Source: Escherichia phage inny
Direction: 5' to 3' (one strand)
Length of the DNA stretch: 64,000 bases
Sequence record: MN850601.1
The notes under the pieces are model-generated. The model was given only the letters and a program-made list of their open reading frames with translations, did not search any database and was not told the origin of the DNA. A program made the position numbers and the translations under genes. Below, piece by piece: positions 17,850 through 39,071 of this stretch. The number at the start of each line of letters is the position of its first letter. Within the stretch, counting starts at the first letter, position 1.

Positions 17850-18440
17850 TTAACGACGACGTGAGCTACTAAAACTACGTTTCGACGAAGAATAACTTTT
17901 CGAAGACTTACTATAAGAGCTAATAGGGCTTGAGTAAGACTTACGAGCAGAGTAATCACTATTCACTTTTGTTGTTGACGGGCGTGAATACGTTTGTACA
18001 CTTTGCTGCTTAATTGTGTTTTGTTTAGTGGTTGTATATTTATTTCCTTGTTTATCATAAAAACTATGCTTTTGTGTTGTATATGCTTTACTGTTAGTTG
18101 TAGGAGCAGCGTTGTTATTAATAATTGTTGTACTGCTACCACCATCTCTATAACCGCCACCGCCACTATTACCACTCAACATATGACCAAGAAGCATACC
18201 TGTAGCAAACTCACCTACACCAGAAGAACCACTGCCGCCTCCTTGCACAACAACTGTTGAAGGTTGTGCAGGTGCTGCTTGAACAACTTGAGGTGCAGGT
18301 TGATTTACATATTGTTCATCTACCATCTGATTTGGTGTTTGTTGGTAACGTTGATTTTGTACATTTTCAGAATCATCACAACCTACCAGCAATGCACTAC
18401 CTAATACAACTGCAACAATAAAAGATTTAATGTTTTTCAT
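17850..18440 (-). CDS. lipoprotein
   Basis: Track ORF trimmed to ATG (MKNIKSF...) with GAGGG SD; signal peptide + lipobox LLVGC; Gly-rich then S/Y-rich tail. Confidence 0.6.
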   Translation of the reverse strand: MKNIKSFIVAVVLGSALLVGCDDSENVQNQRYQQTPNQMVDEQYVNQPAPQVVQAAPAQPSTVVVQGGGSGSSGVGEFATGMLLGHMLSGNSGGGGYRDGGSSTTIINNNAAPTTNSKAYTTQKHSFYDKQGNKYTTTKQNTIKQQSVQTYSRPSTTKVNSDYSARKSYSSPISSYSKSSKSYSSSKRSFSSSRRR

Positions 18441-18633
18441 TTGTAACCCTCTCATTTAAAGTCTCAACACAATTTTTAAAATCCCTAGAGAAACAATACA
18501 TCTGTTCTCCGTTCCTGTTGATAGTAATTGTATGGTTATCAATATATGTTGTCAAGATAAAAATCAAACAAAACAACCCTAGAGCAAAACAAATATTTTC
18601 AAACAGAATCCAAAGAACACGTAAAACCACCAT
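18427..18633 (-). CDS. small hydrophobic protein
   Basis: 68 aa with hydrophobic stretch; short and overlapping. Confidence 0.3.
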   Translation of the reverse strand: MVVLRVLWILFENICFALGLFCLIFILTTYIDNHTITINRNGEQMYCFSRDFKNCVETLNERVTNEKH

Positions 18634-18672
18634 CAGATCACCTCAACAAAGCCCCCGAAGTGGCTTAATGAA

Positions 18673-19650
18673 TTAAGCAACAGTCTGGTCTTCTTTTTCA
18701 GGGAAGATTAAACTTGCAATAACACCCAACCCAAGAGTACCTAACACAATATACATACTGATCGTCGGATCAATGTGTGCTGGCAGGAAACTCACTTTTG
18801 CGTGCAGAGTTTCTGCAAACGGATGATACATCAGTTTTACACCCACAAACACCAGGACTACGATAACTGCTTTCTCCAGATGAACCAAATACTTCAGTGC
18901 AACACTAAGAACAAAGAACAGAGCACGTAAACCTAAGATTGCACAAAGCATCGAAGAGAACACCAGCAGAGGTTCTTGTGTCACTGCAATTACTGCTGGA
19001 ACAGAGTCTACTGCAAAGATTACGTCTACCATTTCCATTACAAACACACAAACCAGAGCCGGAGTTGCTACACGAACACCATTTTTGATTGTGAAGAACT
19101 TCTCACCATCCATCTGATCAGATACAGGGAACAGCTTACGAACAATACGAGTAGCCCAGTGTTTAGAGTAATCAATTTCTGCATCATTATCCCCAGCGAA
19201 TACCATTTTAGCCGCACAGAAAAGGATGACAGCACCGAAGAAGATATTAACATACCAGCCCAAACTCAACAAGTAAGTACCTACTGCTACAAACACACCT
19301 CGGAAGACAATTGCACCTGCAATACCCCAAAGTAGAATCTTGTGCTGCAAGTGTGTGCTTTTAATACCAAAACTTGCGAAGACTGCCACAAATACTACTA
19401 AGTTATCTACAGAAAGAGATTTCTCCAACACATAACCACTCAAGAACAAGCTCGCAAAATCAGCACCGTGTTGGAAGTATACAAAACCATAGTAGGCTAA
19501 TGATACCCCAATCCAGAAAATTGACCAACCAATTGCAGATTTAAATGAGATCTCTTTGTTTTCTCTGTGTCCAAAGAAGTCAATACAAATCGACAAGACT
19601 AAAATACCCACTAAAACAACCACATCAATAATTGGGAAACCCAGTTGCAT
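18673..19650 (-). CDS. terC: TerC-family integral membrane protein
   Basis: 325 aa polytopic; LEKSLSVDNLVVFVAVF and AVDSVPAVIAV repeat motifs. Confidence 0.8.
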   Translation of the reverse strand: MQLGFPIIDVVVLVGILVLSICIDFFGHRENKEISFKSAIGWSIFWIGVSLAYYGFVYFQHGADFASLFLSGYVLEKSLSVDNLVVFVAVFASFGIKSTHLQHKILLWGIAGAIVFRGVFVAVGTYLLSLGWYVNIFFGAVILFCAAKMVFAGDNDAEIDYSKHWATRIVRKLFPVSDQMDGEKFFTIKNGVRVATPALVCVFVMEMVDVIFAVDSVPAVIAVTQEPLLVFSSMLCAILGLRALFFVLSVALKYLVHLEKAVIVVLVFVGVKLMYHPFAETLHAKVSFLPAHIDPTISMYIVLGTLGLGVIASLIFPEKEDQTVA

Positions 19651-19664
19651 TCTTTTCTCCTCTT

Positions 19665-19690
19665 TAATGCGGAGGACAATCCTCCGCTCT
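19665..19690 (-). promoter_or_regulatory. hairpin GCGGAGG-N5-CCTCCGC in 5' leader of terC-like gene
   Basis: 7-bp inverted repeat 15 nt upstream of the terC-like start. Confidence 0.3.
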
Positions 19691-19727
19691 ATGTCTTATA
19701 CTATAAACTGTTTTTAAAGAAAGTCAA

Positions 19728-19976
19728 CTAGTTCAGTTCTGTAATTTTAAGTTTATCTTCTTTGTTAATGATAGGGAAAGCTACAGCATCACCTACGTCA
19801 TCAATAAAGCAAATAGCAATACCACCTTCCACTTTGCTAATCTGACCATTAAAGGCATGATACGGGGCAGGAACTTGATCTCCATCTTCAAGGAGAATAG
19901 CCTCGTAAACCTTGCCGATAGTACAATCACGAGTGTTTCTAAATTTTTCAAGCACTTCAACATTTACTTTACGCAT
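19728..19976 (-). CDS. hypothetical protein
   Basis: 82 aa ORF. Confidence 0.5.
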   Translation of the reverse strand: MRKVNVEVLEKFRNTRDCTIGKVYEAILLEDGDQVPAPYHAFNGQISKVEGGIAICFIDDVGDAVAFPIINKEDKLKITELN

Positions 19977-19990
19977 ATAAAAATCCTCTC

Positions 19991-20197
19991 TTATTTGTTA
20001 GATTGAAAGATACCACGAAGTACCGCAAGAATGAACGTCACACAGACTACACTCCAAAACGTTACAGGAACATGATGCCAGTCTAAACCGATAATGTCAA
20101 TCATATAGTTGTATGCTAAAAGCAGTAGCCAACTAGGGATTAACACAATCAAGAACACAACAATAAAACAACCTAATACTGCTAAAACACCTGCCAT
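19991..20197 (-). CDS. small membrane protein
   Basis: 68 aa, two hydrophobic helices. Confidence 0.5.
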   Translation of the reverse strand: MAGVLAVLGCFIVVFLIVLIPSWLLLLAYNYMIDIIGLDWHHVPVTFWSVVCVTFILAVLRGIFQSNK

Positions 20198-20206
20198 ACT
20201 TTCTCC

Positions 20207-20923
20207 TTATTTCAGTTTGTAAACAATTACATTTAAACCTTTGTTCACTAGAGTTTCTTCGATCATAAGTTTTACAATATTCCAAGAACCTCCAGCCAAA
20301 CCACAACCAAGCATTGGTAAACCTACAATTTTACCGCCTGAAGATACAACATCGTCTCCCATACTATCTAACGCATTGTAGATAGCTTCATAATTCAGGT
20401 CACGCTTACCTTCCTCACGACGACTATAACCATATTGTCCATATAAATTATAAATTGTCAAATTGTTTTCTGTATATTTGGTAAACGTACCTAATTTTTT
20501 ATAATCACCACGTTTAGTGGCACAATCTGCTTTAAACGCACCAGGCCACTTGCTTTTAATTTTTGGTGCAATACCACTACCCATAGTGCAAAAACAGTTA
20601 CAGCAGTGTGCTATAGCGTCTATATCGCCTCTCTCGGCTGCTGCTAAAAGATCACCGTATACCTCAATGATACCTGCCGGATAACTTGTTACAATTTCAT
20701 CTTCCCAATACATTTTCTCTACACCACCGATCAGTGCAAAGTTTTGTGTAATGCGATCATCAATATAGTTAAGACCTGAAACATACACAGCGTATTCATC
20801 CTGTGCTGTAATACCTTGCACACGAATTCTTAAGACACCATCTTTATCTGTTGCTACACGCCCAAAATCTTTTTCTGTAATATTGGTGATAGGATCTCCG
20901 AAAGTCATTACTTTATTAGACAT
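20207..20923 (-). CDS. macro-domain (ADP-ribose binding/processing) protein
   Basis: Track ORF trimmed to ATG (MSNKVMTF...) with AAGGGGA SD; IDAIAHCCNCFCTMGSGIA and LPMLGCGLAGGSW resemble macro motifs. Confidence 0.6.
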   Translation of the reverse strand: MSNKVMTFGDPITNITEKDFGRVATDKDGVLRIRVQGITAQDEYAVYVSGLNYIDDRITQNFALIGGVEKMYWEDEIVTSYPAGIIEVYGDLLAAAERGDIDAIAHCCNCFCTMGSGIAPKIKSKWPGAFKADCATKRGDYKKLGTFTKYTENNLTIYNLYGQYGYSRREEGKRDLNYEAIYNALDSMGDDVVSSGGKIVGLPMLGCGLAGGSWNIVKLMIEETLVNKGLNVIVYKLK

Positions 20924-21773
20924 AATAATCCCCTTTAACATTAGGTTTGTTGATAATGTTGCTTTCAAAAAATTGACGTAGGAAATCAAAGTTCTCTTTG
21001 TATTTTTCAATGTTATTGTAACCTTCTGCAAGGCAACCAAAGAACAGTTGTTCTACATAATACAAAGGAAGTTGTGAAAGTGCAATTTTAAAATCAACTT
21101 CGCTTTGACTCATTAGATACTTAATAGGACGAACCAAACATTTAGCATCAGCTTCTTGCTTAATCATTTTAATAAAAGCTGCCAGATTATTGATATAGTT
21201 GAAGTTAAGTGCAGCTTCGGTGTTGGCTTCTGTACCTTCATACTTTGCAAAGTACAGGAAAAACGTATCGTTTTCAACACCTTCTTTGTCTAAAATTTCA
21301 ATAAGTTTTTCTTCGTGTGTTCCTGTAATATTAACATCATCAATGAAAATCAGAGTTTTATTACCCCAGAAATCACGATTGATAGAGAAAGTGTCACCAT
21401 CGATCAAAGCCTTACGATCTTCTTTGCTAAGAAATCCATAATCATTGATATAGCTCACTTTACGATGAACGATATCCCACTCCACTGGTTTACCACCTTT
21501 GATAGAGATTAGGTAGTTGAGGTGATCTACAAAATGTTCAGATAACACTGTAGCTGCATTTTTCACATAGTTATATGGAGATGGAATAACAACAAAACTT
21601 TCATTTACCAGTCGTTCTTCATACTTAGAAAAGAAACTTTCAGCCAGAATGCGCCCCATTCTTTTTGCTGCCTGGTTACTACCAAACTTTAGTTTGGAAT
21701 AATCTGCAATGTTAAATTTTGCTTCCTTCAGGTTAGTAAAAGTATTAGCAAAATGTTGAATTTGATTACGCAT
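20916..21773 (-). CDS. phosphoribosyltransferase (PRTase)-like protein
   Basis: 285 aa; TLIFIDDVNITGTH resembles PRPP-binding motif. Confidence 0.5.
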   Translation of the reverse strand: MRNQIQHFANTFTNLKEAKFNIADYSKLKFGSNQAAKRMGRILAESFFSKYEERLVNESFVVIPSPYNYVKNAATVLSEHFVDHLNYLISIKGGKPVEWDIVHRKVSYINDYGFLSKEDRKALIDGDTFSINRDFWGNKTLIFIDDVNITGTHEEKLIEILDKEGVENDTFFLYFAKYEGTEANTEAALNFNYINNLAAFIKMIKQEADAKCLVRPIKYLMSQSEVDFKIALSQLPLYYVEQLFFGCLAEGYNNIEKYKENFDFLRQFFESNIINKPNVKGDYYV

Positions 21774-22422
21774 TAATAAGTTCCTCTTTTTTAAGTTTAG
21801 CCAACAAGTCTTCTGGATTAATAATATGACAGAACTTCATCCCTATGTCAACAGCTTTTCCATCATAAATCAAACTATCTCCAACGTGTAAAATCTCTTC
21901 TGGTGCGAGATCAAACGTCACCATTTCATCAAAAGAGAGTTTAAAAAACCTAGGATCTGGTTTACACAAGCAAAACTCGTCAGAAAAATGCATAAAGTCA
22001 AATGGTAATTTTGTTAAGCCAGAATATACAGCTAAGAAACTACCTGGTACAAAATTAGTATTGCTCTTAATACTCAAAGAGTAGGTTGAACTTAGCTCTT
22101 CCAACTTCTTGCAAAGTTCAGGATTCAATGTTGGAGGATGTTTTATAAACATTGCCAAACAATCTCTTTTTAACCCATCCACTTTATCAAGATCAATGTT
22201 CAAACGAGTAGAAAGTGTTACCCAAGCATCCTTAGACGTTCCACAAATGCCTTTTTCTGCTTTTAAATCCAAGAAAGTTTTTACCTCTTTGTATACGGTA
22301 GCTGCTTCTGCCTCAGAGCAAGAGGCATACTCGGCAATAACCTTGTTGCGCTCTTCTGCATACAAAGGGTTAGCAGTAATAAGAGTATTCCATACATCAA
22401 AAGAAATATGCTTAACAGTCAT
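21766..22422 (-). CDS. HAD-superfamily hydrolase
   Basis: Track ORF trimmed to ATG (MTVKH...) with GGAGGA SD; motif I ISFDVWNTL, motif IV HVGDSLIYDG. Confidence 0.55.
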   Translation of the reverse strand: MTVKHISFDVWNTLITANPLYAEERNKVIAEYASCSEAEAATVYKEVKTFLDLKAEKGICGTSKDAWVTLSTRLNIDLDKVDGLKRDCLAMFIKHPPTLNPELCKKLEELSSTYSLSIKSNTNFVPGSFLAVYSGLTKLPFDFMHFSDEFCLCKPDPRFFKLSFDEMVTFDLAPEEILHVGDSLIYDGKAVDIGMKFCHIINPEDLLAKLKKEELINA

Positions 22423-22591
22423 TTTTAATCCTCCGTCCAAAAGAATATCATCTGCTTAATTTTATTGATTTCTTGATGTAGTAACTTTCCAGCATGTGAT
22501 TGATCTTTAATATTGACAGCAAGAATTTCAAGTTCCGTTAGTTTTTCTTGGATAGCTTTATATTCATCATCTGTAAGCATTTTCTTCCCCT

Positions 22592-22783
22592 TTAGAATGG
22601 TAATCTTTGTATGTCACTTATCCCCACACCAAGAAGTCTAGCAATATCCTTATCTAAAAGCAACTCTTTTTGTTCTAAAATGTTAATCAGATCTCCTAAT
22701 ACTTCTTTAATGTCACGATCATTTTTAGCAACGTGACCACCTGCTGTATCAACTTTATCTTTAAAAACAAAGTAATGATCCAT
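22592..22783 (-). CDS. hypothetical protein
   Basis: Track ORF trimmed to ATG (MDHYF...) with GGAGGG SD; 63 aa. Confidence 0.45.
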   Translation of the reverse strand: MDHYFVFKDKVDTAGGHVAKNDRDIKEVLGDLINILEQKELLLDKDIARLLGVGISDIQRLPF

Positions 22784-22795
22784 AATACCCTCCAT

Positions 22796-22828
22796 ATAAA
22801 TAAAGGAGGCTTTCGCCTCCTTTTATCA
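22796..22828 (-). terminator. hairpin GGAGGC-N4-GCCTCC with flanking T tracts
   Basis: Perfect 6-bp stem immediately downstream of AAA ATPase gene stop. Confidence 0.45.
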
Positions 22829-22829
22829 C

Positions 22830-23990
22830 TTAGTAAGAACGACCACCAAACACATACTCTGTGTAGTTTTTACGTTCTTTGTTTTTAATAACAACTTCAA
22901 TGTTGTTGCCTTTATCATCGGTGAACACAAAGTGATAACCGTCACCACCCATTGTACGGATGTGTTTTTCATCATACGTCAGCAAGATACGGTCTACACC
23001 CCAGTAGTAGTCACCTTCTTCATCTTTGTCTTCTACTGTAACGACCCCTTCCATTTCAGGAAGATGCTCCTCTCCTAGCTTATGGTCTACAGCTACAACA
23101 TAACGATTACCGCTAAACAAACCCTGTGCTGTCATACCGTCAATATCGGTATCTGCCGAAACATCTCCTGTACGATCTACACCGTTAACTTTCAGGAGTT
23201 TAACTTCTTTTGCAGCATAGCGGTGTTCAGTAATACTGATACCCATTAATGCAAGTGCATCAGAGAATTTGTCATTAGGGTAACGGTTAAGTTCTTCTAC
23301 TAGTGACTGAACAATATCAAAGTTCAAGTCCACGGAAAGATTATAAAGCGTTTCAAAATCTGGTAAAAAGGCTTTGTTCTCCAGATTTTTAGCCAGATAG
23401 TCATCCATAGTAGCTTTAGGTAGTTTCTTATAGCTAAAACTGTAGAAAATACGGCTAGGACGATTACGCAAAAATTCTGATACATAACCATCATTTTTAG
23501 TCAATACAAACAGCTTGTCATAGCCACCTACACCATCCAGCAGAGTAAGCAAACCATCCTGTGCATCTTTTTCAGCATACAGTTTATCAAATTCATCGAT
23601 CATAATCATCACAGGTTGTGTGATTTTAGACATAAAATTGATAAAGCCTTCGCCATTAAAAGCACTACCGATAGAAATAGTAGGAATACCCATTTCACGA
23701 AGAGCAGAAGACAGCATTTTAGCTTGCAAAGTTTTACCACTACCCTTCGTACCCTCAAGGAGAACACCTGTGTTTTTACCTTTGCGGCTAAGGAACGTCT
23801 TGATAATACGTTCTGATTTATCATCAGTATCACCGTATGTTACTGAAGGGACTTCCATATCGTTTTTAGGATACAGGAAGAACTCACCACTTTGAGTAAC
23901 ACCTACACCAAAAGTTCCTGCTGGAATTTCTTCAATATCTGTACCAGATTTCTGACGCAGGAAGATTTGATTGCCGAATACTGTAAACAT
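22830..23990 (-). CDS. AAA+ ATPase (classic AAA clade)
   Basis: 386 aa; Walker A GTKGSGKT, Walker B IMIDEFDK, LLTLLDG, FLRNRPSRIFYSF; paralog of 39536..40663. Confidence 0.75.
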   Translation of the reverse strand: MFTVFGNQIFLRQKSGTDIEEIPAGTFGVGVTQSGEFFLYPKNDMEVPSVTYGDTDDKSERIIKTFLSRKGKNTGVLLEGTKGSGKTLQAKMLSSALREMGIPTISIGSAFNGEGFINFMSKITQPVMIMIDEFDKLYAEKDAQDGLLTLLDGVGGYDKLFVLTKNDGYVSEFLRNRPSRIFYSFSYKKLPKATMDDYLAKNLENKAFLPDFETLYNLSVDLNFDIVQSLVEELNRYPNDKFSDALALMGISITEHRYAAKEVKLLKVNGVDRTGDVSADTDIDGMTAQGLFSGNRYVVAVDHKLGEEHLPEMEGVVTVEDKDEEGDYYWGVDRILLTYDEKHIRTMGGDGYHFVFTDDKGNNIEVVIKNKERKNYTEYVFGGRSY

Positions 23991-26290: not shown

Positions 26291-26318
26291 AAAATAAAAG
26301 CCAGCATTAAGCTGGCTT
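26291..26318 (-). promoter_or_regulatory. stem-loop AAGCCAGC-N5-GCTGGCTT + T tract abutting nrdD RBS (terminator/attenuator)
   Basis: 8-bp perfect stem followed on minus strand by TTTTATTTT, about 14 nt upstream of nrdD ATG. Confidence 0.5.
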
Positions 26319-26366
26319 TAGGGTGGATCTTTATTTTAAATCTTTTTCGTAAGATTGTCCTTGATC

Positions 26367-27334: not shown

Positions 27335-27769
27335 TTAGTTTAAAATTTCTTTGGCAATGGTAGAAGCAAGTTTTCCATCATATTGATTAGGATACTCTGC
27401 TTTAAGGTGTTTCATCATATCTGGCATTTTCTTGCCTGTCAAGGCAAATTCTTCAGCAATCGCTCGAAGGTCATCTTCAGATAGCATTTCTGGTAAATAT
27501 TTTTCCAGAGTGGTGATATCACGCATAGCTCGCTCACATTTGCTAATGGAAGCATTAACTTTCTTAAGTGAGTCTAGCTCCTCTTTAGCGTGTGCAATAC
27601 CAATCTTAACAATGTTAATCATAATATCATCTTCTGATTTATTTAGATTTGCCTTTTGAGTACGAGCAAGGTCAAACTCACCAATAATATTAGTTAACAA
27701 AGCAAAAGCACCCTTATCGGTTGTACGTGCTAAGATACGATCTGCTTTCATTTGTGTCACAATAGACAT
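27335..27769 (-). CDS. GatB/YqeY-domain protein
   Basis: 144 aa; KYLPEMLSEDDLRAIAEEF...MKHLKAEYPNQYDGKLASTIAKEIL resembles YqeY family. Confidence 0.65.
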   Translation of the reverse strand: MSIVTQMKADRILARTTDKGAFALLTNIIGEFDLARTQKANLNKSEDDIMINIVKIGIAHAKEELDSLKKVNASISKCERAMRDITTLEKYLPEMLSEDDLRAIAEEFALTGKKMPDMMKHLKAEYPNQYDGKLASTIAKEILN

Positions 27770-27781
27770 TCTATTCTCCTC

Positions 27782-28354
27782 TTATTTGCTAATGCTTTGA
27801 ATCTTATTTACAACACGGTTTATTGCCAGTGAAGCCCTAGGCTCCGCAATACCTGTTGCATAGATATAAGGATGACCTTTTGGAGACTCCCTTATACCGA
27901 ATGAACCTAATTCTAAACCATATTCATCTTCTACGTCAACCCCAATATTAGTGGGTACTAAATATGTTTTAACTCCATAATAAGTAGAGAAGAAACAGCG
28001 CATAGAGTTAGCATACTCTTCAATTGTAGCATCAGGGTAGAACTCAATCAACTCCAATTTCAAGAAAATATTAAAATGAGTATCATCTAAATTTTCTTCT
28101 GTACGGTAACATGGTGTTAGTGCCATATAAGGATTACCTGCTGCAAATTCAAAACCATCCTTCTCCATTTGCAGGAAAGATTGTTCTGCACTGGCTACAT
28201 AGTATTTACCGTTAGGATGCCCTAATGGGCGATCCTCTTTATTTTCTGGTAGTGTGTACGCCAGTATATCAGCATCCACGAGATATGGAACTTCCAACAT
28301 CTGTGCAAACCGACCATAGTAATCAATAGCTTGAGCTATTACTTCAACATTCAT
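27782..28354 (-). CDS. hypothetical protein (possible class II aaRS-like minimal catalytic core)
   Basis: 190 aa; YRTEENLDDTHFNIF (motif-2-like fRxE...HxxxF) and GLELGSFGIRE (motif-3-like); tentative. Confidence 0.5.
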   Translation of the reverse strand: MNVEVIAQAIDYYGRFAQMLEVPYLVDADILAYTLPENKEDRPLGHPNGKYYVASAEQSFLQMEKDGFEFAAGNPYMALTPCYRTEENLDDTHFNIFLKLELIEFYPDATIEEYANSMRCFFSTYYGVKTYLVPTNIGVDVEDEYGLELGSFGIRESPKGHPYIYATGIAEPRASLAINRVVNKIQSISK

Positions 28355-28602
28355 GAGCGACCTCCATTGCGGAATGCACGTTTAGTAATGTTCGACATAG
28401 TGATCAAATCTTGAAGCGTCATATCAGGAAAATGCTGTTCAAGAACACCTTCAACAGCGCCTACAATATCTGATAACTCGATAAGTTGCATCAGCTTGCA
28501 ATCTTGATCAATAGCATCCTGAAGTTCATAAAGCTCTTCTTGAATTTTAGCAATAGAACCATATTCCTCTTTGCTAATCTCCTTCAAATGATACCCTGCC
28601 AC
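28351..28602 (-). CDS. hypothetical protein (possible MazG-like all-alpha NTP pyrophosphohydrolase)
   Basis: 83 aa; EEL.EL.DA and E.V.E glutamate-rich helices; C-terminus resembles 56277..56594 product. Confidence 0.4.
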   Translation of the reverse strand: MAGYHLKEISKEEYGSIAKIQEELYELQDAIDQDCKLMQLIELSDIVGAVEGVLEQHFPDMTLQDLITMSNITKRAFRNGGRS

Positions 28603-35962: not shown

Positions 35963-37066
35963 TTAATCAATTTTTTCACTAACAAAATTTTTTATATTTT
36001 CATAATCTTCTAGATTATATGTTTCTGTATATCCATCCGGTAGCCACTCTTTTAAGCATAAAGAGCGGTTAAAACATTTTTTAACTTCTTTCTCCAAAGC
36101 GAAAATAGTAGCATAATCTCCACTGAAACTGTCAAGTAGATAATGCTTAAACATGCTGTTTTTACTTTGCTCTTTGATTCTACGATCAATATCTACCGTA
36201 ATCCCTGCTTTCAAGCAGGTATAAAACGGAGAAACCAATTTTTGTATATAAAAACACCAATTTGATTGTTGGTTTTCGGTGTACGGAATTTCTTTTACTC
36301 TTTTTTGCTTTTTAACATTCATCTCTGTAAAGGGTAATGCTTTATAGAGTGATGTTTGACCGTGGCGTGTCTCTACAGAAAGAACTCCCATATCAACAAA
36401 CATATTTATAATATTGCGTACCTGACGATCACTAACCATTCCAATATTAGCTAATGTTTTTTGAGTAGCGTAACATTCTTGCCCTTGTTCATTGAATCCA
36501 GCTATATAGCTATAGATTTCAACGGCTGGCAGTGTAGCGGTGTATTCATTACCAGATGGTGAATACCATTTTTTAAACATTTTCCATTCTGTAGGGGGAA
36601 GCTGTTCAGGAACAGCTTTAACAGTAGATACTTGCTCTGTCTGTGGCTTTTCTGCATTTACAGAGGCTTTCGCTTCTCTTGGGGGAGTAATATGTGCATC
36701 TGTGAGAGGTAGCGCACGTAATTTTAAAGGACGTTTTGGAATTCGTTCTCCGACCTCTTCTAAAAGACCGATTTTAATCATAATACCAATCAATTCATTA
36801 ACTGTCTTACGGCTACAGCTACAAACTTTACTTAACTTCGTTTGTGTTTCAAAACATATTCCCCCTGATTTATCCCAATCTGAAACATAGCAATATAATT
36901 TTTGCATTTCTACACTAAACTTAACTTTTCCACCACCAACACTTGAGGAGTAGATAAACTCAATCTCACAAAAGTAATGAGGTATATTCAAAGTTCGGTC
37001 TTTAATTTCTCCTGTTTGTTTATCAACATACTGGTATTTTTCACGAATCAATTTAATTTTAGACAT
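35963..37066 (-). CDS. putative DNA-binding protein with two helix-turn-helix-like segments
   Basis: Track ORF trimmed to ATG (MSKIKLIREK...) with AGGAG SD; HTH-like SRKTVNELIGIMIKIGLL and SDRQVRNIINMFVDMGVL. Confidence 0.5.
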   Translation of the reverse strand: MSKIKLIREKYQYVDKQTGEIKDRTLNIPHYFCEIEFIYSSSVGGGKVKFSVEMQKLYCYVSDWDKSGGICFETQTKLSKVCSCSRKTVNELIGIMIKIGLLEEVGERIPKRPLKLRALPLTDAHITPPREAKASVNAEKPQTEQVSTVKAVPEQLPPTEWKMFKKWYSPSGNEYTATLPAVEIYSYIAGFNEQGQECYATQKTLANIGMVSDRQVRNIINMFVDMGVLSVETRHGQTSLYKALPFTEMNVKKQKRVKEIPYTENQQSNWCFYIQKLVSPFYTCLKAGITVDIDRRIKEQSKNSMFKHYLLDSFSGDYATIFALEKEVKKCFNRSLCLKEWLPDGYTETYNLEDYENIKNFVSEKID

Positions 37067-37103
37067 TAGAATAATCTCCTTATAAATCACGCTTAATGCG
37101 CTA

Positions 37104-37286
37104 CTAAAGTGAATGAGGATCATTTACCTTTTTTTGTTTGATATTCTCTGCTGCTTCAGTAATGATTTCTAACATCAAATCACTGACCATAATTTGCCTT
37201 TTCTTGGCTTCAGCAAATAAAACCTTGAAGATTTCAGGGTCAACGTGTAGGTAAGTGCGCGGAATTGGTTTCTTAGTTTCGCTCAT
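37104..37286 (-). CDS. ribbon-helix-helix (CopG/Arc-like) small DNA-binding protein
   Basis: Track ORF trimmed to ATG (MSETKKPIPRTYLHVDPEIFKVL...) with AAGGAG SD; beta-strand + two helices pattern. Confidence 0.45.
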   Translation of the reverse strand: MSETKKPIPRTYLHVDPEIFKVLFAEAKKRQIMVSDLMLEIITEAAENIKQKKVNDPHSL

Positions 37287-37299
37287 AGTTTTCTCCTTA

Positions 37300-37653
37300 T
37301 TACATCCACAGATTATGGAAATACTTAGCAAACAAAATACGACCTTCTAAACGATCTTGCCGCTGTTTTTCATTAACTTCTTCTGGTGGAGTTGAGTCCT
37401 TAAAAGAAGACTCCATTTTTTCAAGAATTTCTAACCAGTGTTCTGCTGCTCGTTCTTCCATATAAGGTAGATAGTCACCTTTAGCGTGTGGGTACATCCG
37501 ACGAAGTAACCCACTAGGAATTTTAACATTGTTTGTGGCTATCACTTTTGCACGATATGCAGAAAGTGCATTGTAGATCAGTTTACTTAGTGTCACATCT
37601 AGATCAAGAAGATCACTCTCTTCAAATTGAATTTCATCGTGTACAATTTTCAT
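37300..37653 (-). CDS. hypothetical protein
   Basis: 117 aa ORF. Confidence 0.5.
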   Translation of the reverse strand: MKIVHDEIQFEESDLLDLDVTLSKLIYNALSAYRAKVIATNNVKIPSGLLRRMYPHAKGDYLPYMEERAAEHWLEILEKMESSFKDSTPPEEVNEKQRQDRLEGRILFAKYFHNLWM

Positions 37654-37664
37654 ATCACTCTCCT

Positions 37665-37955
37665 TTATAGTAAAACACGTTTTGCACTGCTTGGTGCATT
37701 GTCGAACATGTTTATCACTTTGTCAAGTTTGTGTATTAACTCGTTCGTAATGTTCCACTCTTTGTATGATCTCCATTGTTTCTTATTCTCACCTACCTGG
37801 TGTAAAACTTTGATTGGTGCATTCAAACGTACATTGCGTTCTTTGTCCTCTTCAAAAGAGGCTAACCATTTTTCGTTATGCCCATGAACAGCAATAATAA
37901 TGCCAAAACCATCAAAAGTTTCTGTAATATTCTTAGTTGCTAGTGTGATGTTCAT
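37665..37955 (-). CDS. hypothetical protein
   Basis: 96 aa; first gene of leftward block. Confidence 0.5.
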   Translation of the reverse strand: MNITLATKNITETFDGFGIIIAVHGHNEKWLASFEEDKERNVRLNAPIKVLHQVGENKKQWRSYKEWNITNELIHKLDKVINMFDNAPSSAKRVLL

Positions 37956-38014
37956 ATCTAACCTCTTTTGTTACGATGCACACAGAGTACCAGAAATTAA
38001 TTTCAGATCAAGTA

Positions 38015-38042
38015 TTGACATACTGTTTTATTGTGCTAATCT
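38015..38042 (+). promoter_or_regulatory. sigma70-like promoter (TTGACA-N16-TAATCT) at strand-switch region
   Basis: Consensus -35 with spaced -10-like hexamer about 35 nt upstream of first rightward gene. Confidence 0.4.
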
Positions 38043-38074
38043 TAATGCATACACAAATGAGAGGAGATAAACGA

Positions 38075-38626
38075 ATGCAAAACATCGATCTGACTTGGAT
38101 AGAAGCCAAAGAAGCAATGTTAAAAGGCAAACGCGTTAAACATAAATACTTCTGCGAAGGAGAATGGTTTGAAATGTGTAACCGATCCATTGTAGATGAA
38201 AAAGGGAATGACATGCAACAATGGTTCAAAAATGAAATTTGGCAGGGAACAGGTTGGTCTATAGTTGAAGAGCAGCCTAGCTCAAGCGCACTGTTTAGCC
38301 CTATTATGTATCGCGTTATCGGTGCTTTAGTTGTTGATCACGGGATTGCAGTGGAAAAAGAATGCTGGGAAGAGGTATCTTTTTTCAACCTGGCTTCTTA
38401 TGCAAAAAGCCATATGCACTTGTTTGAAGAAGGGGATGAATTTGTTCTTCGTATGCGATATGGCAAAGAATTCAGATTACCACTTGATAACGATGTAGAC
38501 ACTGTTGTAAAATGGTTAGCAGAGCATTACGCTTACGATGCAATTTGTGGTCGCAGCTTCGGCAACGAACGCTGGGACATGATTTGTGAAAAATATGATT
38601 TTGAGCCGGAGTACGGAGTTTTATAA
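38075..38626 (+). CDS. hypothetical protein
   Basis: Track ORF 37976..38626 trimmed to ATG (MQNIDLTW...) with GAGGAG SD. Confidence 0.55.
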   Translation: MQNIDLTWIEAKEAMLKGKRVKHKYFCEGEWFEMCNRSIVDEKGNDMQQWFKNEIWQGTGWSIVEEQPSSSALFSPIMYRVIGALVVDHGIAVEKECWEEVSFFNLASYAKSHMHLFEEGDEFVLRMRYGKEFRLPLDNDVDTVVKWLAEHYAYDAICGRSFGNERWDMICEKYDFEPEYGVL

Positions 38627-38877
38627 TGTTAAGTATCAAACCTAAAATGATAACAGAAGACGAAGCAGACTTTATTTTCAAATGTGGACGTGTATGGAGA
38701 GAATTCACAAAAGGGAATGAAGTGGTGGTTGTTGTCGAACACAAGATATCTATCCAGGATCTGTTTGGACAATATGTTGATGTTATTAAATTAGGTATTG
38801 ACAAGGGTTTAGTTGAGGTGTTAACATTAGATCAAGTTGAAGCAGAGCACCTCGACAAAGTAGTGGTTGAATTTTAA
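38626..38877 (+). CDS. hypothetical protein
   Basis: 83 aa ORF. Confidence 0.5.
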   Translation: MLSIKPKMITEDEADFIFKCGRVWREFTKGNEVVVVVEHKISIQDLFGQYVDVIKLGIDKGLVEVLTLDQVEAEHLDKVVVEF

Positions 38878-38897
38878 AATACAGATGGGAGAAAGGT

Positions 38898-39071
38898 ATG
38901 AGTTTCTTTGTTACAGTATTTATGGCTATCTGGATTGTAGTCTCACTCGTTCTTTTCCTGGTGGGTTGTCTGGAAGAGATTAAGAAAGCGGTTATTTGCG
39001 GTTTCTTTGGCTTTATTATCTCTCCTGCCTGGATGTGGTTCTTCATTATGATTGGTTTCCTTAAAAGGTAA
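38898..39071 (+). CDS. small membrane protein (57 aa)
   Basis: Below track cut-off; GGGAGAAAGGT upstream of ATG; MSFFVTVFMAIWIVVSLVLFLVGCLEE... Confidence 0.4.
   Translation: MSFFVTVFMAIWIVVSLVLFLVGCLEEIKKAVICGFFGFIISPAWMWFFIMIGFLKR

Follow-up and report, generated by a model that had tools for sequence, protein, structure and literature searches.

We observed that two adjoining genes of Escherichia phage inny, one coding for a minimal class II aminoacyl-tRNA synthetase (aaRS)-like protein and the other for a MazG-like protein, form a conserved unit. A preliminary description of the window (the whole 64,000-nucleotide stretch of sequence record MN850601.1 that was analysed) had grouped them with a GatB/YqeY-domain protein as a trio; the new result is that the pair, and not the trio, is conserved. 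The pair is a putative, widespread two-part enzyme, which its sequences place in large phages, giant viruses, CPR bacteria and DPANN archaea alike. Our best guess is that it forms seryl-adenylate and has a nucleotide of dNTP-pool metabolism, and not tRNA, as its target. For the full proposal, in which a two-subunit enzyme uses seryl-adenylate on a nucleotide for (d)NTP-pool or DNA-precursor metabolism, we would put the probability at about 0.4.

The pair as the conserved unit

The three genes lie at 27335-28602, all on the minus strand, exactly where the preliminary description had placed them. The MazG-like gene (28351..28602, minus strand; phrog_6408) has a GTG start with AAGGGGG upstream, and its 83-aa product resembles an all-alpha NTP pyrophosphohydrolase subunit of the HisE/MazG type. 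The aaRS-like gene (27782..28354, minus strand; phrog_4806) encodes a minimal class II catalytic core of the SerRS type, 190 aa in length. The YqeY gene (27335..27769, minus strand) starts 12 nt downstream of the aaRS-like gene and codes for a free-standing YqeY (GatB C-terminal-like) protein of 144 aa. A Shine-Dalgarno-like sequence precedes each of the three genes. The stop codon of the MazG-like gene and the start codon of the aaRS-like gene overlap in an ATGA (28351..28354, minus strand) with GGAGG 7 nt upstream, which suggests translational coupling from the MazG-like to the aaRS-like gene; the identical 4-nt overlap was seen in 19 other loci of the pair. A consensus scan found a terminator-like hairpin at 26297..26319 on the minus strand (9-bp stem with 5 GC pairs, followed by a T-rich tail). 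Transcription of a unit running helicase, MazG-like, aaRS-like, YqeY and a 316-aa ORF would stop there, before nrdD. The nrdD-nrdG genes lie about 2 kb from the pair. Labels for the three genes are not new, since GenBank OK272470 names them GatB/YqeY protein, putative seryl-tRNA synthetase and putative phosphoribosyl-ATP pyrophosphatase.

In 77 of the 81 viral loci surveyed, the aaRS-like gene adjoined the MazG-like gene and ran in the same direction; the order of the two was swapped in 12 and they were fused in 5. This adjacency, together with the translational coupling and the natural fusions, bears out the grouping of these two as one module. More than 110 database proteins of 260-300 aa, from CPR bacteria, DPANN archaea and giant-virus-type contigs, are fusions of the two. 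The predicted structure of a fused protein (pLDDT 96.6, pTM 0.91) gives a confident model in which the arrangement of the domains appears fixed; a search for solved structures spanning both domains found none. In the loci and fusions surveyed the MazG-like protein was never met alone, being always accompanied by the aaRS-like core or fused to it. The two genes occur in 272 and 262 phage records with nearly identical host lists. The aaRS-like family comprises about 1,600 clusters at 50% identity, and the profile of the fused form gives 2,638 matches.

The third gene behaved differently. The assignment of the 144-aa product to the GatB/YqeY family was confirmed, with a PF09424 score of 30.3 bits against a cut-off of 27 and a match to Bacillus subtilis YqeY (1ng6, E=1.1e-4); it also matched 8xjg (E=0.01) and phrog_1460 (E=1.5e-36). 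The gene adjoins the pair only in phi92-like phages, which make up 3 of the 81 viral loci, and outside these phages no YqeY appeared among the matches listed for the 126 immediate neighbours of the pair. Its own distribution is also different (151 phage records, with Vibrio the most common host). On these grounds the trio was rejected as a functional unit; YqeY is a lineage-specific neighbour picked up in phi92-like phages, outside the conserved module.

Our literature search found no paper on the aaRS-like/MazG-like module, and a comparative paper on jumbo phages (PMC7824862) makes no mention of it. PADLOC gave no match for the aaRS-like, MazG-like or YqeY proteins or for the fused form, and a role in defence or anti-defence was set aside for the three proteins on this absence of matches.

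The SerRS-type core and its HisE/MazG-like partner

The likeness of the 190-aa protein to class II aaRSs, proposed from short motifs, is well beyond chance: the family profile matches the SerRS 2dq3 with E=7.7e-5, and the structures closest to the core are SerRSs of several lineages, including the Pyrococcus horikoshii and eukaryotic enzymes. The two strings on which the proposal had been based are both present in the protein, YRTEENLDDTHFNIF at residues 83-97 and GLELGSFGIRE at residues 146-156. They had been read as motifs 2 and 3. The former is indeed motif 2, with R84. The latter is not motif 3; a motif comparison with canonical SerRS places it instead at the strand bearing E148 and S151, which is the 'E-L-A-S' segment in SerRS. 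The true motif 3 is ATGIAEPRASLAI, at residues 166-178, with T167 and the invariant R173. Motif 1 lies around V22-P23, and motif 2 in full spans residues 80-101 (R84, F97, E101).

The preliminary description would have dropped the assignment if there were no class II fold and no conserved ATP-binding arginines. The antiparallel beta-sheet catalytic fold of class II aaRSs is present, and R84 and R173 are invariant in the family, so the assignment stands. P23 is nearly invariant, and the equivalents of these residues are invariant in 117 fused homologues. S55/E57, E101, E148/S151 and T167 are likewise invariant in the family alignment. In the HMMER and hhalign alignments to SerRS, which cover only the N-terminal half of the protein, S55-A-E57 aligns with the SerRS T-A-E, and TPCYR84 and F97-x-K-x-E101 fall on motif 2 of SerRS. 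By-eye motif comparison matched E148-L-G-S151 and T167...P-R173 with the 'ELAS' and 'T....PR' of canonical SerRS. The positions matching the SerRS active site showed no variation among 43 phage-type homologues or among 117 fused ones. We take S55/E57, E101, E148/S151 and T167 to have the serine- and adenylate-related roles of their counterparts in published SerRS structures.

The protein starts at motif 1, the alignment to SerRS beginning at about residue 178 of SerRS. There was no match to the Seryl_tRNA_N domain, and the N-terminal tRNA-binding arm is absent, as is an anticodon domain. In SerRS, the N-terminal coiled-coil arm recognises the long variable arm of tRNA-Ser. Bacterial-type SerRS has this arm and about 425 aa, whereas the core described here has 190 aa, no such arm and always a HisE/MazG-like partner. 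Relative to SerRS the motif-2 loop is short by 6 residues, and H93 stands in place of the second motif-2 arginine of SerRS, a residue which we read as contacting the ATP gamma-phosphate. No match to TIGR00414 or NCBIfam was obtained for the 190-aa protein, and a fused homologue scored 17.8 bits on TIGR00414 against a cut-off of 301.65. The label 'histidyl tRNA synthetase' carried by phrog_4806 was considered and rejected, since neither an anticodon-binding domain nor a partnership with HisG was found; a HisRS or HisZ identity does not fit.

The small protein had been described as a glutamate-rich, all-alpha protein reminiscent of MazG and HisE, and it does carry the metal-binding signature of that group. 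All 48 sequences compared share Y4, H5, I9, K19, E22, E23, E26, E42 and D45; the EExxE(12-28)ExxD motif is present with the spacing EExxE(15)ExxD, and it aligns with HisE 2a7w and MazG-like 1vmg. These two were also the top PDB profile matches of the family, at a weak E of about 0.04-0.05, and hhalign against one genuine MazG gave a weak E=0.2. Pfam PRA-PH was matched by 37 of the 48 family members (E<1, best E=2.6e-5), the protein of the window scoring 14.5 bits, below the cut-off of 21.3. The assignment to MazG/HisE thus draws on motif conservation and weak profile matches, and is to be read as probable. In the model of the fused protein this region is predicted to be helical, with three helices. 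Its acidic helical hairpin and its size, close to that of the smallest members, are those of the superfamily of MazG, integron MazG, HisE and dimeric dUTPase; unlike these, it falls below the Pfam threshold in the window and has invariant segments of its own, an N-terminal G-Y-H and a C-terminal T-x-R-A-F-x-x-G-x-R. In four jumbo-phage loci a cupin-like 'HDH' domain is fused to the MazG-like protein; it had no Pfam match and was found nowhere else, and it was set aside. Both members of the pair are acidic (pI about 4.6), which is uninformative for function because many aaRSs are acidic too.

Neighbours of the pair in cellular and viral genomes

In cellular genomes the pair is often found beside the gene for a small uncharacterised radical SAM protein, NrdR, or NUDIX/MazG genes. 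In loci of WWE3, Woesebacteria and Saccharibacteria, nrdR directly adjoined the pair in divergent orientation, for fused as well as split forms. No NrdR boxes were found between nrdR and the pair in the CPR loci at a threshold of at least 12 of 16 consensus matches. In another CPR group, wHTH-NUDIX and canonical MazG genes adjoin the pair; ThyA, DHFR, NDK and PRK are near it in an archaeon, and the RNR large subunit, PolX and PolB on a giant-virus-type contig. The immediate viral neighbours were heterogeneous, with nucleotide-metabolism genes making up about 7 of 126.

The radical SAM partner (about 230 aa) was present in 8 of 14 fused cellular loci. Its best matches were weak, namely the NTP-using MoaA and viperin and a W-cofactor maturase, and its PDB profile matches were generic. 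We tried to identify it as NrdG, MoaA, QueE or viperin, and all scores were far under the cut-offs; one of the radical SAM partners weakly matched EpmB (E=0.0016). There is no such gene in the window, whose NrdG (156 aa) is a different protein, and there were five weak matches only across the viral loci. As the partner is missing from the window and from nearly all viral loci, the phage and cellular systems may differ in function.

Full-length SerRS is also present in the cellular genomes that carry the aaRS-like protein, indicating that the latter is no SerRS replacement. In three cellular lineages a canonical SerRS lies within 6 kb of the pair, and several of the genes near it in archaea have to do with tRNA or RNA, which would also fit a role linked to tRNA.

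Proposed reaction and the alternatives

We propose that the 190-aa and 83-aa proteins would be the two subunits of one enzyme, which in many other genomes is a single fused polypeptide. The large subunit would be a SerRS-derived core that has lost every tRNA-recognition element but has kept a complete ATP site and those residues which line up with the active-site motifs of SerRS, and it would convert serine (or a small amino acid much like it) and ATP to seryl-adenylate and PPi. Serine as the substrate, the formation of an adenylate and a physical complex of the two subunits are what we infer from the active-site residues, the linkage and the fusions. The small subunit would hold a Mg2+-nucleoside triphosphate, which it could cleave between the alpha and beta phosphates. 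More speculatively, the seryl-adenylate would be used on the nucleotide held or made by the small subunit, giving an aminoacyl-nucleotide or a related adenylate-transfer product, with a role in (d)NTP-pool or DNA-precursor metabolism and not in the charging of tRNA-Ser. In favour of such a role are nrdD-nrdG near the pair in the window and the nucleotide-related neighbours in the cellular and giant-virus-type loci; the heterogeneous viral neighbours and the outcome of the NrdR-box search count against it. A wider version of this idea is rather unlikely in our estimate. In it the pair would be at the heart of a so far unrecognised system of nucleotide metabolism, whose seryl-adenylate chemistry on an NTP would make or process a novel aminoacyl- or serine-derived nucleotide that matters to DNA-precursor supply; in cells this system would be NrdR-linked and have a radical SAM enzyme of its own.

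Several GenBank records annotate the aaRS-like protein as a seryl-tRNA synthetase, and it could be a genuine one reduced to a minimum, with tRNA binding supplied in trans, here by YqeY. The fully conserved SerRS-type active site, the nearby SerRS genes in three cellular lineages and the tRNA-related genes near archaeal loci fit such an enzyme. So does the YqeY gene downstream, as the YqeY domain of Deinococcus radiodurans GlnRS raises its affinity for tRNA (PMC1865053). That domain, however, is fused and acts only in cis (PMC1865053), whereas the YqeY of the window is free-standing and is not found beside the pair outside phi92-like phages. The coiled-coil arm is missing, the motif-2 loop is short, the partner that is always present, an acidic HisE/MazG-like protein, is not an RNA binder, the 64-kb window contains no tRNA genes, and the cellular carriers keep a full SerRS. 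We therefore consider a true SerRS improbable. A regulatory reading, modelled on HisZ with HisG/HisE, has the core sensing serine and/or ATP and controlling the MazG-like protein as a house-cleaning (d)NTP pyrophosphatase, so that pools are tuned during infection. The complete catalytic motif of the small subunit and the NrdR, NUDIX and MazG neighbours in CPR genomes would suit it. HisZ, however, is HisRS-derived and has lost its catalytic motif residues, while the core here is SerRS-like and retains all of them: the motif 2 and 3 arginines, the proposed Mg-binding glutamate and the adenine-stacking phenylalanine are invariant in about 160 sequences, which argues for catalysis and not mere binding. 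There is also no HisG-like gene, and the small partner is shorter (83 aa, three helices). Pure sensing is in our view quite unlikely.

Two further readings keep the catalysis and change the acceptor. SerRS reportedly makes Ap4A from seryl-adenylate, and the pair might be an Ap4N synthase in which the gamma-phosphate of an NTP placed by the MazG-like subunit attacks the adenylate, serine being catalytic; alternatively, the small subunit might degrade such products. A partner suited to holding Mg-NTP and a fused form whose domain arrangement is confidently predicted to be fixed would agree with this. It leaves the radical SAM partner of cellular genomes unexplained, and H93 replaces the second motif-2 arginine, so that we find it very unlikely. 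The amino acid could also go to a protein or carrier, of which the small partner might be one; in cells the radical SAM enzyme would then remodel the amino acid. The association of an aaRS paralogue lacking tRNA function with a radical SAM enzyme echoes EpmA (PoxA/GenX) and EpmB, which act on EF-P, and the weak EpmB match of one partner points the same way; here such coupling occurs only in the CPR/DPANN versions. EpmA, however, descends from LysRS and is paired with a lysine 2,3-aminomutase, EpmB, about 340 aa long, in contrast to the SerRS-like core and the partner of about 230 aa, and an EpmA/EpmB-type system was rejected, the partner being not EpmB-like overall and absent from the window. 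The amino acid:[carrier protein] ligases, such as Bll0957 (PDB 3mey), are truncated relatives of SerRS about 300 aa long that stem from the methanogen-type enzyme and are encoded beside carrier-protein genes, whereas the partner here is nucleotide pyrophosphatase-like. Neither the cellular neighbourhoods of the pair nor the families listed for its 126 immediate viral neighbours (25 of the 38 that matched) included a PP-binding (phosphopantetheine) carrier gene, and what is invariant in the small protein is the HisE/MazG catalytic set, with no single acceptor residue. Protein aminoacylation is accordingly the most doubtful of these readings.

Class II aaRS paralogues that work without tRNA (HisZ, AsnA, EpmA and the amino acid:carrier protein ligases) each revealed a new use of aminoacyl-adenylates. 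The pair, with its seryl-adenylate chemistry still a proposal, persists in large viruses and in symbionts with reduced genomes (CPR, DPANN), for which the supply of nucleotides is understood least. The database names 'histidyl tRNA synthetase' and 'seryl-tRNA synthetase' are misleading, as they imply a phage translation enzyme. Defining the reaction of the pair would correct these annotations and add to the non-canonical functions of aaRSs, and it could bring to light a novel nucleotide metabolite, or a step in the control of the dNTP pool, that is manipulated by phages.

The gene block and its SerRS-type core

The preliminary description had proposed a trio of genes for a GatB/YqeY-domain protein, a class II aminoacyl-tRNA synthetase (aaRS)-like protein and a MazG-like protein. 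We recovered these three ORFs where it had placed them, all on the minus strand. In the direction of transcription, the block runs from a UvrD-type helicase (30388-28613) through the 83-aa MazG-like gene (28602-28351), the 190-aa aaRS-like gene (28354-27782) and the YqeY gene (144 aa, 27769-27335) to a 316-aa ORF (27317-26367). The 83-aa gene has a GTG start six bases past AAGGGGG, and its TGA shares bases with the start ATG of the 190-aa gene (ATGA), which is preceded by GGAGG; good Shine-Dalgarno sequences also precede YqeY and the 316-aa ORF. A strong terminator-like hairpin (26319-26297, minus strand) separates this block from nrdD and nrdG, so the 83-aa/190-aa module and nrdDG, although neighbours, are probably not co-transcribed.

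Over 4.1 kb, the region is 97-99% identical to Escherichia phages of the genus Justusliebigvirus (phi92-like, Stephanstirmvirinae), among them outra, Eryne and JLBYU50. The gene labels of the preliminary description are not new, since GenBank OK272470 already carries 'GatB/YqeY domain-containing protein', 'putative seryl-tRNA synthetase' and 'putative phosphoribosyl-ATP pyrophosphatase', and other records, like PHROG 4806, name the central one 'histidyl tRNA synthetase'. The record MG065639.1 ('Campylobacter phage A150', host C. jejuni; hits H29 and H88) shows 98-100% protein identity (tblastn) to genes of E. coli phi92-like phages, and is probably mislabelled or a contaminant.

Some further features of the window were also observed. 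The 316-aa ORF is named 'ribonucleotide reductase' at PHROG 15930 and in several GenBank records; it had no match in Pfam, NCBIfam, PADLOC or PDB sequences, among the fetched loci, just 4 had homologues, and the label looks unsupported. The helicase has 591 aa in the window versus 924 aa in phage VEcB (L130:2514-5288); ALITA, muut and other relatives likewise have about 1 kb more in this region. The additional sequence is internal to the gene, perhaps an intein or some other insertion. Upstream of nrdG, at about 18300-23990 (minus strand; by correspondence with L001:1-5691, a related record), that record's annotation gives tellurium-resistance/TelA-like proteins, a phosphatase and an AAA-type ATPase, which may form a Ter-type stress or metabolite module. 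Near 38 kb (about 37000-39000), the GC skew changes sign, negative before and positive after, consistent with a switch of the main coding strand.

When the 190-aa protein was searched as a single sequence, we obtained Pfam tRNA-synt_2d at E=0.21 and no match in the PDB. A profile of 43 homologues matched the Aquifex SerRS 2dq3 at E=7.7e-5, followed by AspRS, further SerRSs and PylRS. All three class II motifs were found: motif 1 around V22-P23, motif 2 at T80-P-C82-Y-R84...F97-L-K99-L-E101, and motif 3 at T167-G-I-A-E-P-R173. The two peptide strings quoted in the preliminary description are present (residues 83-97 and 146-156); the second, which had been taken for motif 3, instead corresponds, in the motif comparison, to the E148/S151 strand, the 'ELAS' segment of canonical SerRS. 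The N-terminal coiled coil is absent, and relative to SerRS six residues are missing from the motif-2 loop. Judged from its sequence, the protein is without any tRNA-recognition element, and we take it to be a SerRS-derived, putatively adenylate-forming core that very likely retains serine activation. Against the definition of a seryl-tRNA synthetase it failed on two points, having no tRNA arm and no family score above the cut-off.

An RNA polymerase alpha C-terminal domain (PF03118, 27.3 bits; cut-off 23.8) is attached to the N-terminus of the aaRS-like protein at two viral loci (L065:3743-4597 and, on a 308-kb contig, L078:3743-4597). This domain is a helix-hairpin-helix module that binds DNA or protein.

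The HisE/MazG-like partner, gene linkage and YqeY

Nine residues (Y4, H5, I9, K19, E22, E23, E26, E42 and D45) were invariant in 48 diverse homologues of the 83-aa protein. The family shows K-EExxE(15)ExxD, the signature of all-alpha NTP pyrophosphohydrolases, and these residues align in both of the best PDB matches of the profile, HisE 2a7w (E=0.042) and the MazG-like SSO3215 1vmg (E=0.051). Pfam PRA-PH was matched by 37 of the 48 members (best E=2.6e-5) and MazG by 6; the window protein alone stayed below the PRA-PH threshold (14.5 versus 21.3 bits), and hhalign against one genuine MazG protein was weak (E=0.2). These individually weak but consistent matches make a HisE/MazG-type assignment likely.

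We examined 80 IMG/VR loci with relatives of the 190-aa protein (29-98% identity, contigs of 9 to 578 kb) and the GenBank locus, 81 in all. A homologue of the 83-aa protein was present on the same strand in 77, always within about 1.4 kb of the aaRS-like gene and mostly abutting or overlapping it. The 4-nt overlap of the window recurred in 19 loci, the order was reversed in 12, and the pair formed a single ORF of 262-266 aa in 5; no other protein family recurred in more than 8 loci. Among 50,697 phage records, the 190-aa protein occurred in 272 (Escherichia 111, Acinetobacter 61, Caulobacter 13, Pectobacterium 10, others) and the 83-aa protein in 262 (112, 53, 13 and 10 in the same hosts, others), an almost identical host breakdown.

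The 144-aa protein scored above the Pfam YqeY threshold (30.3 versus 27 bits) and matched B. subtilis YqeY 1ng6 at E=1.1e-4. YqeY occurred in 151 of the 50,697 records (Vibrio 52, Escherichia 45), and its near-identical matches (n=55) equalled the number of phi92-like records matching the window region. A Pfam scan of 126 immediate neighbours of the pair, leaving out the window's close relatives, listed neither YqeY nor any dominant family; NrdD, RNR subunits, ThyA, dCMP deaminase and a dATP/dGTP diphosphohydrolase domain were scattered among them. Since its host breakdown differs from that of the pair and none is listed beside the pair outside the window's close relatives, YqeY is a lineage-specific, incidental neighbour outside the module, and the proposed trio reduces to a conserved pair.

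Large-phage contigs (155-578 kb) also encode a MazG-like module fused to an N-terminal domain of about 200 aa (L033:3043-3990, L041:3175-4002, L051:2953-3858, L049:4552-5421). This domain has a conserved 'HDH...G..Y...FH' pattern and looks cupin-like, with no match in Pfam.

Fused proteins and their cellular neighbours

An exhaustive profile search (E<=0.001) returned 1,594 cluster representatives, almost all of 175-200 aa; in a subgroup of 260-275 aa, the aaRS-like core is followed by the MazG-like module, joined at the conserved G-Y-H. A fused-profile search gave 2,638 proteins, of which the best 120 were almost all fused. We found no solved structure spanning both domains; the predicted structure of one fused protein (pLDDT 96.6, pTM 0.91) implies, as a model, a defined domain arrangement. 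Fused proteins came, among other sources, from Woesebacteria (905-kb contig), Woesearchaeota, Nanoarchaeia and Spechtbacterales, and from contigs with eukaryotic-virus hallmarks (ankyrin, UCH, RING, PolB, intein-bearing RNR). A GTDB scan with one genome per species yielded 38 loci, all in MAGs and mostly from DPANN archaea and CPR bacteria (Saccharibacteria, Woesebacteria, WWE3, Magasanikbacteria, Spechtbacterales), with a few from other phyla. As full-length SerRS is retained in these cellular genomes, the aaRS-like protein does not replace it.

Of the 14 GTDB loci with a fused gene, 8 also have a radical SAM gene (about 230 aa) that directly adjoins or overlaps it, on the upstream side in CPR genomes and on the downstream side in archaeal ones. 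This family (221-256 aa; L093, L098, L100-L105, e.g. L100:6786-7472, and L082:7234-8004) has the motifs CxxxCxxC, GGGEP and YTNG, and is missing from the window and from almost all viral loci. It scored far under every curated family, the weak best matches being MoaA, tungsten-cofactor maturase, viperin and NrdG2. The cupin-like domain of the large phages might be an oxygen-dependent counterpart of this partner, which was found in anaerobic CPR/DPANN genomes.

In WWE3 (L098), Woesebacteria (L103/L082, and another contig of 835 kb) and two loci of Saccharibacteria (L111, L115), NrdR is encoded directly beside the pair in divergent orientation, the pair being fused in some of these loci and split in others; no canonical NrdR box was found between nrdR and the pair. 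A second CPR group has a wHTH-NUDIX protein and canonical MazG as divergent neighbours, and one archaeon has ThyA, DHFR, uridine kinase and NDK nearby. Within 6 kb on either side, nine archaeal loci (L092, L093, L097, L099-L102, L104, L105), some of them lacking the radical SAM gene, encode an uncharacterised protein of about 280 aa with no Pfam match (e.g. L100:5008-5862, minus strand); in each of the four loci with a listed layout, it directly adjoins the fused gene in divergent orientation.

A proposed enzyme and its alternatives

The two folds with their motif sets, the strict gene linkage and the fusion were all observed. They argue well for the 83-aa and 190-aa proteins together being one enzyme, whose core, from its motifs, would bind ATP and serine and form the adenylate. 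The acceptor may be a nucleotide on the HisE/MazG-like module and not a tRNA, with a possible role in (d)NTP-pool metabolism. A purely nucleotide reading has observations against it: several archaeal neighbours are tRNA- or RNA-related, and three unrelated cellular lineages have a full-length canonical SerRS at a distance of 1-5 kb from the fused gene (L082:13810-15084, L086:8960-10285, L097:3810-5105), which is commoner than chance by a rough estimate of about 0.3 cases expected within 6 kb.

A minimal tRNA-charging SerRS aided by YqeY would recall the YqeY fused to D. radiodurans GlnRS, which increases tRNA affinity, in cis only (PMC1865053); with the tRNA arm absent and the motif-2 loop shortened, we consider this unlikely. 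Just as improbable is a HisZ-like role, in which the 190-aa protein would be the regulatory subunit and the 83-aa protein the house-cleaning pyrophosphatase. Synthesis of Ap4N by the core is a still poorer candidate, and an EpmA-like aminoacylation of protein appears the least probable of the four.

Our literature search found no paper on an aaRS-like/MazG-like module; the phage RXM genome paper lists a 'SerRS', as an annotation name only, two genes from two MazG genes (PMC8953757). What is new is that the 'synthetase' is a SerRS core without the tRNA arm and occurs obligately with a HisE/MazG-like module, as a pair or as a fusion; YqeY is incidental. The range of the family takes in CPR, DPANN and giant viruses, together with linkage to NrdR and a radical SAM partner of its own, and the module would belong among the non-tRNA aaRS paralogues.
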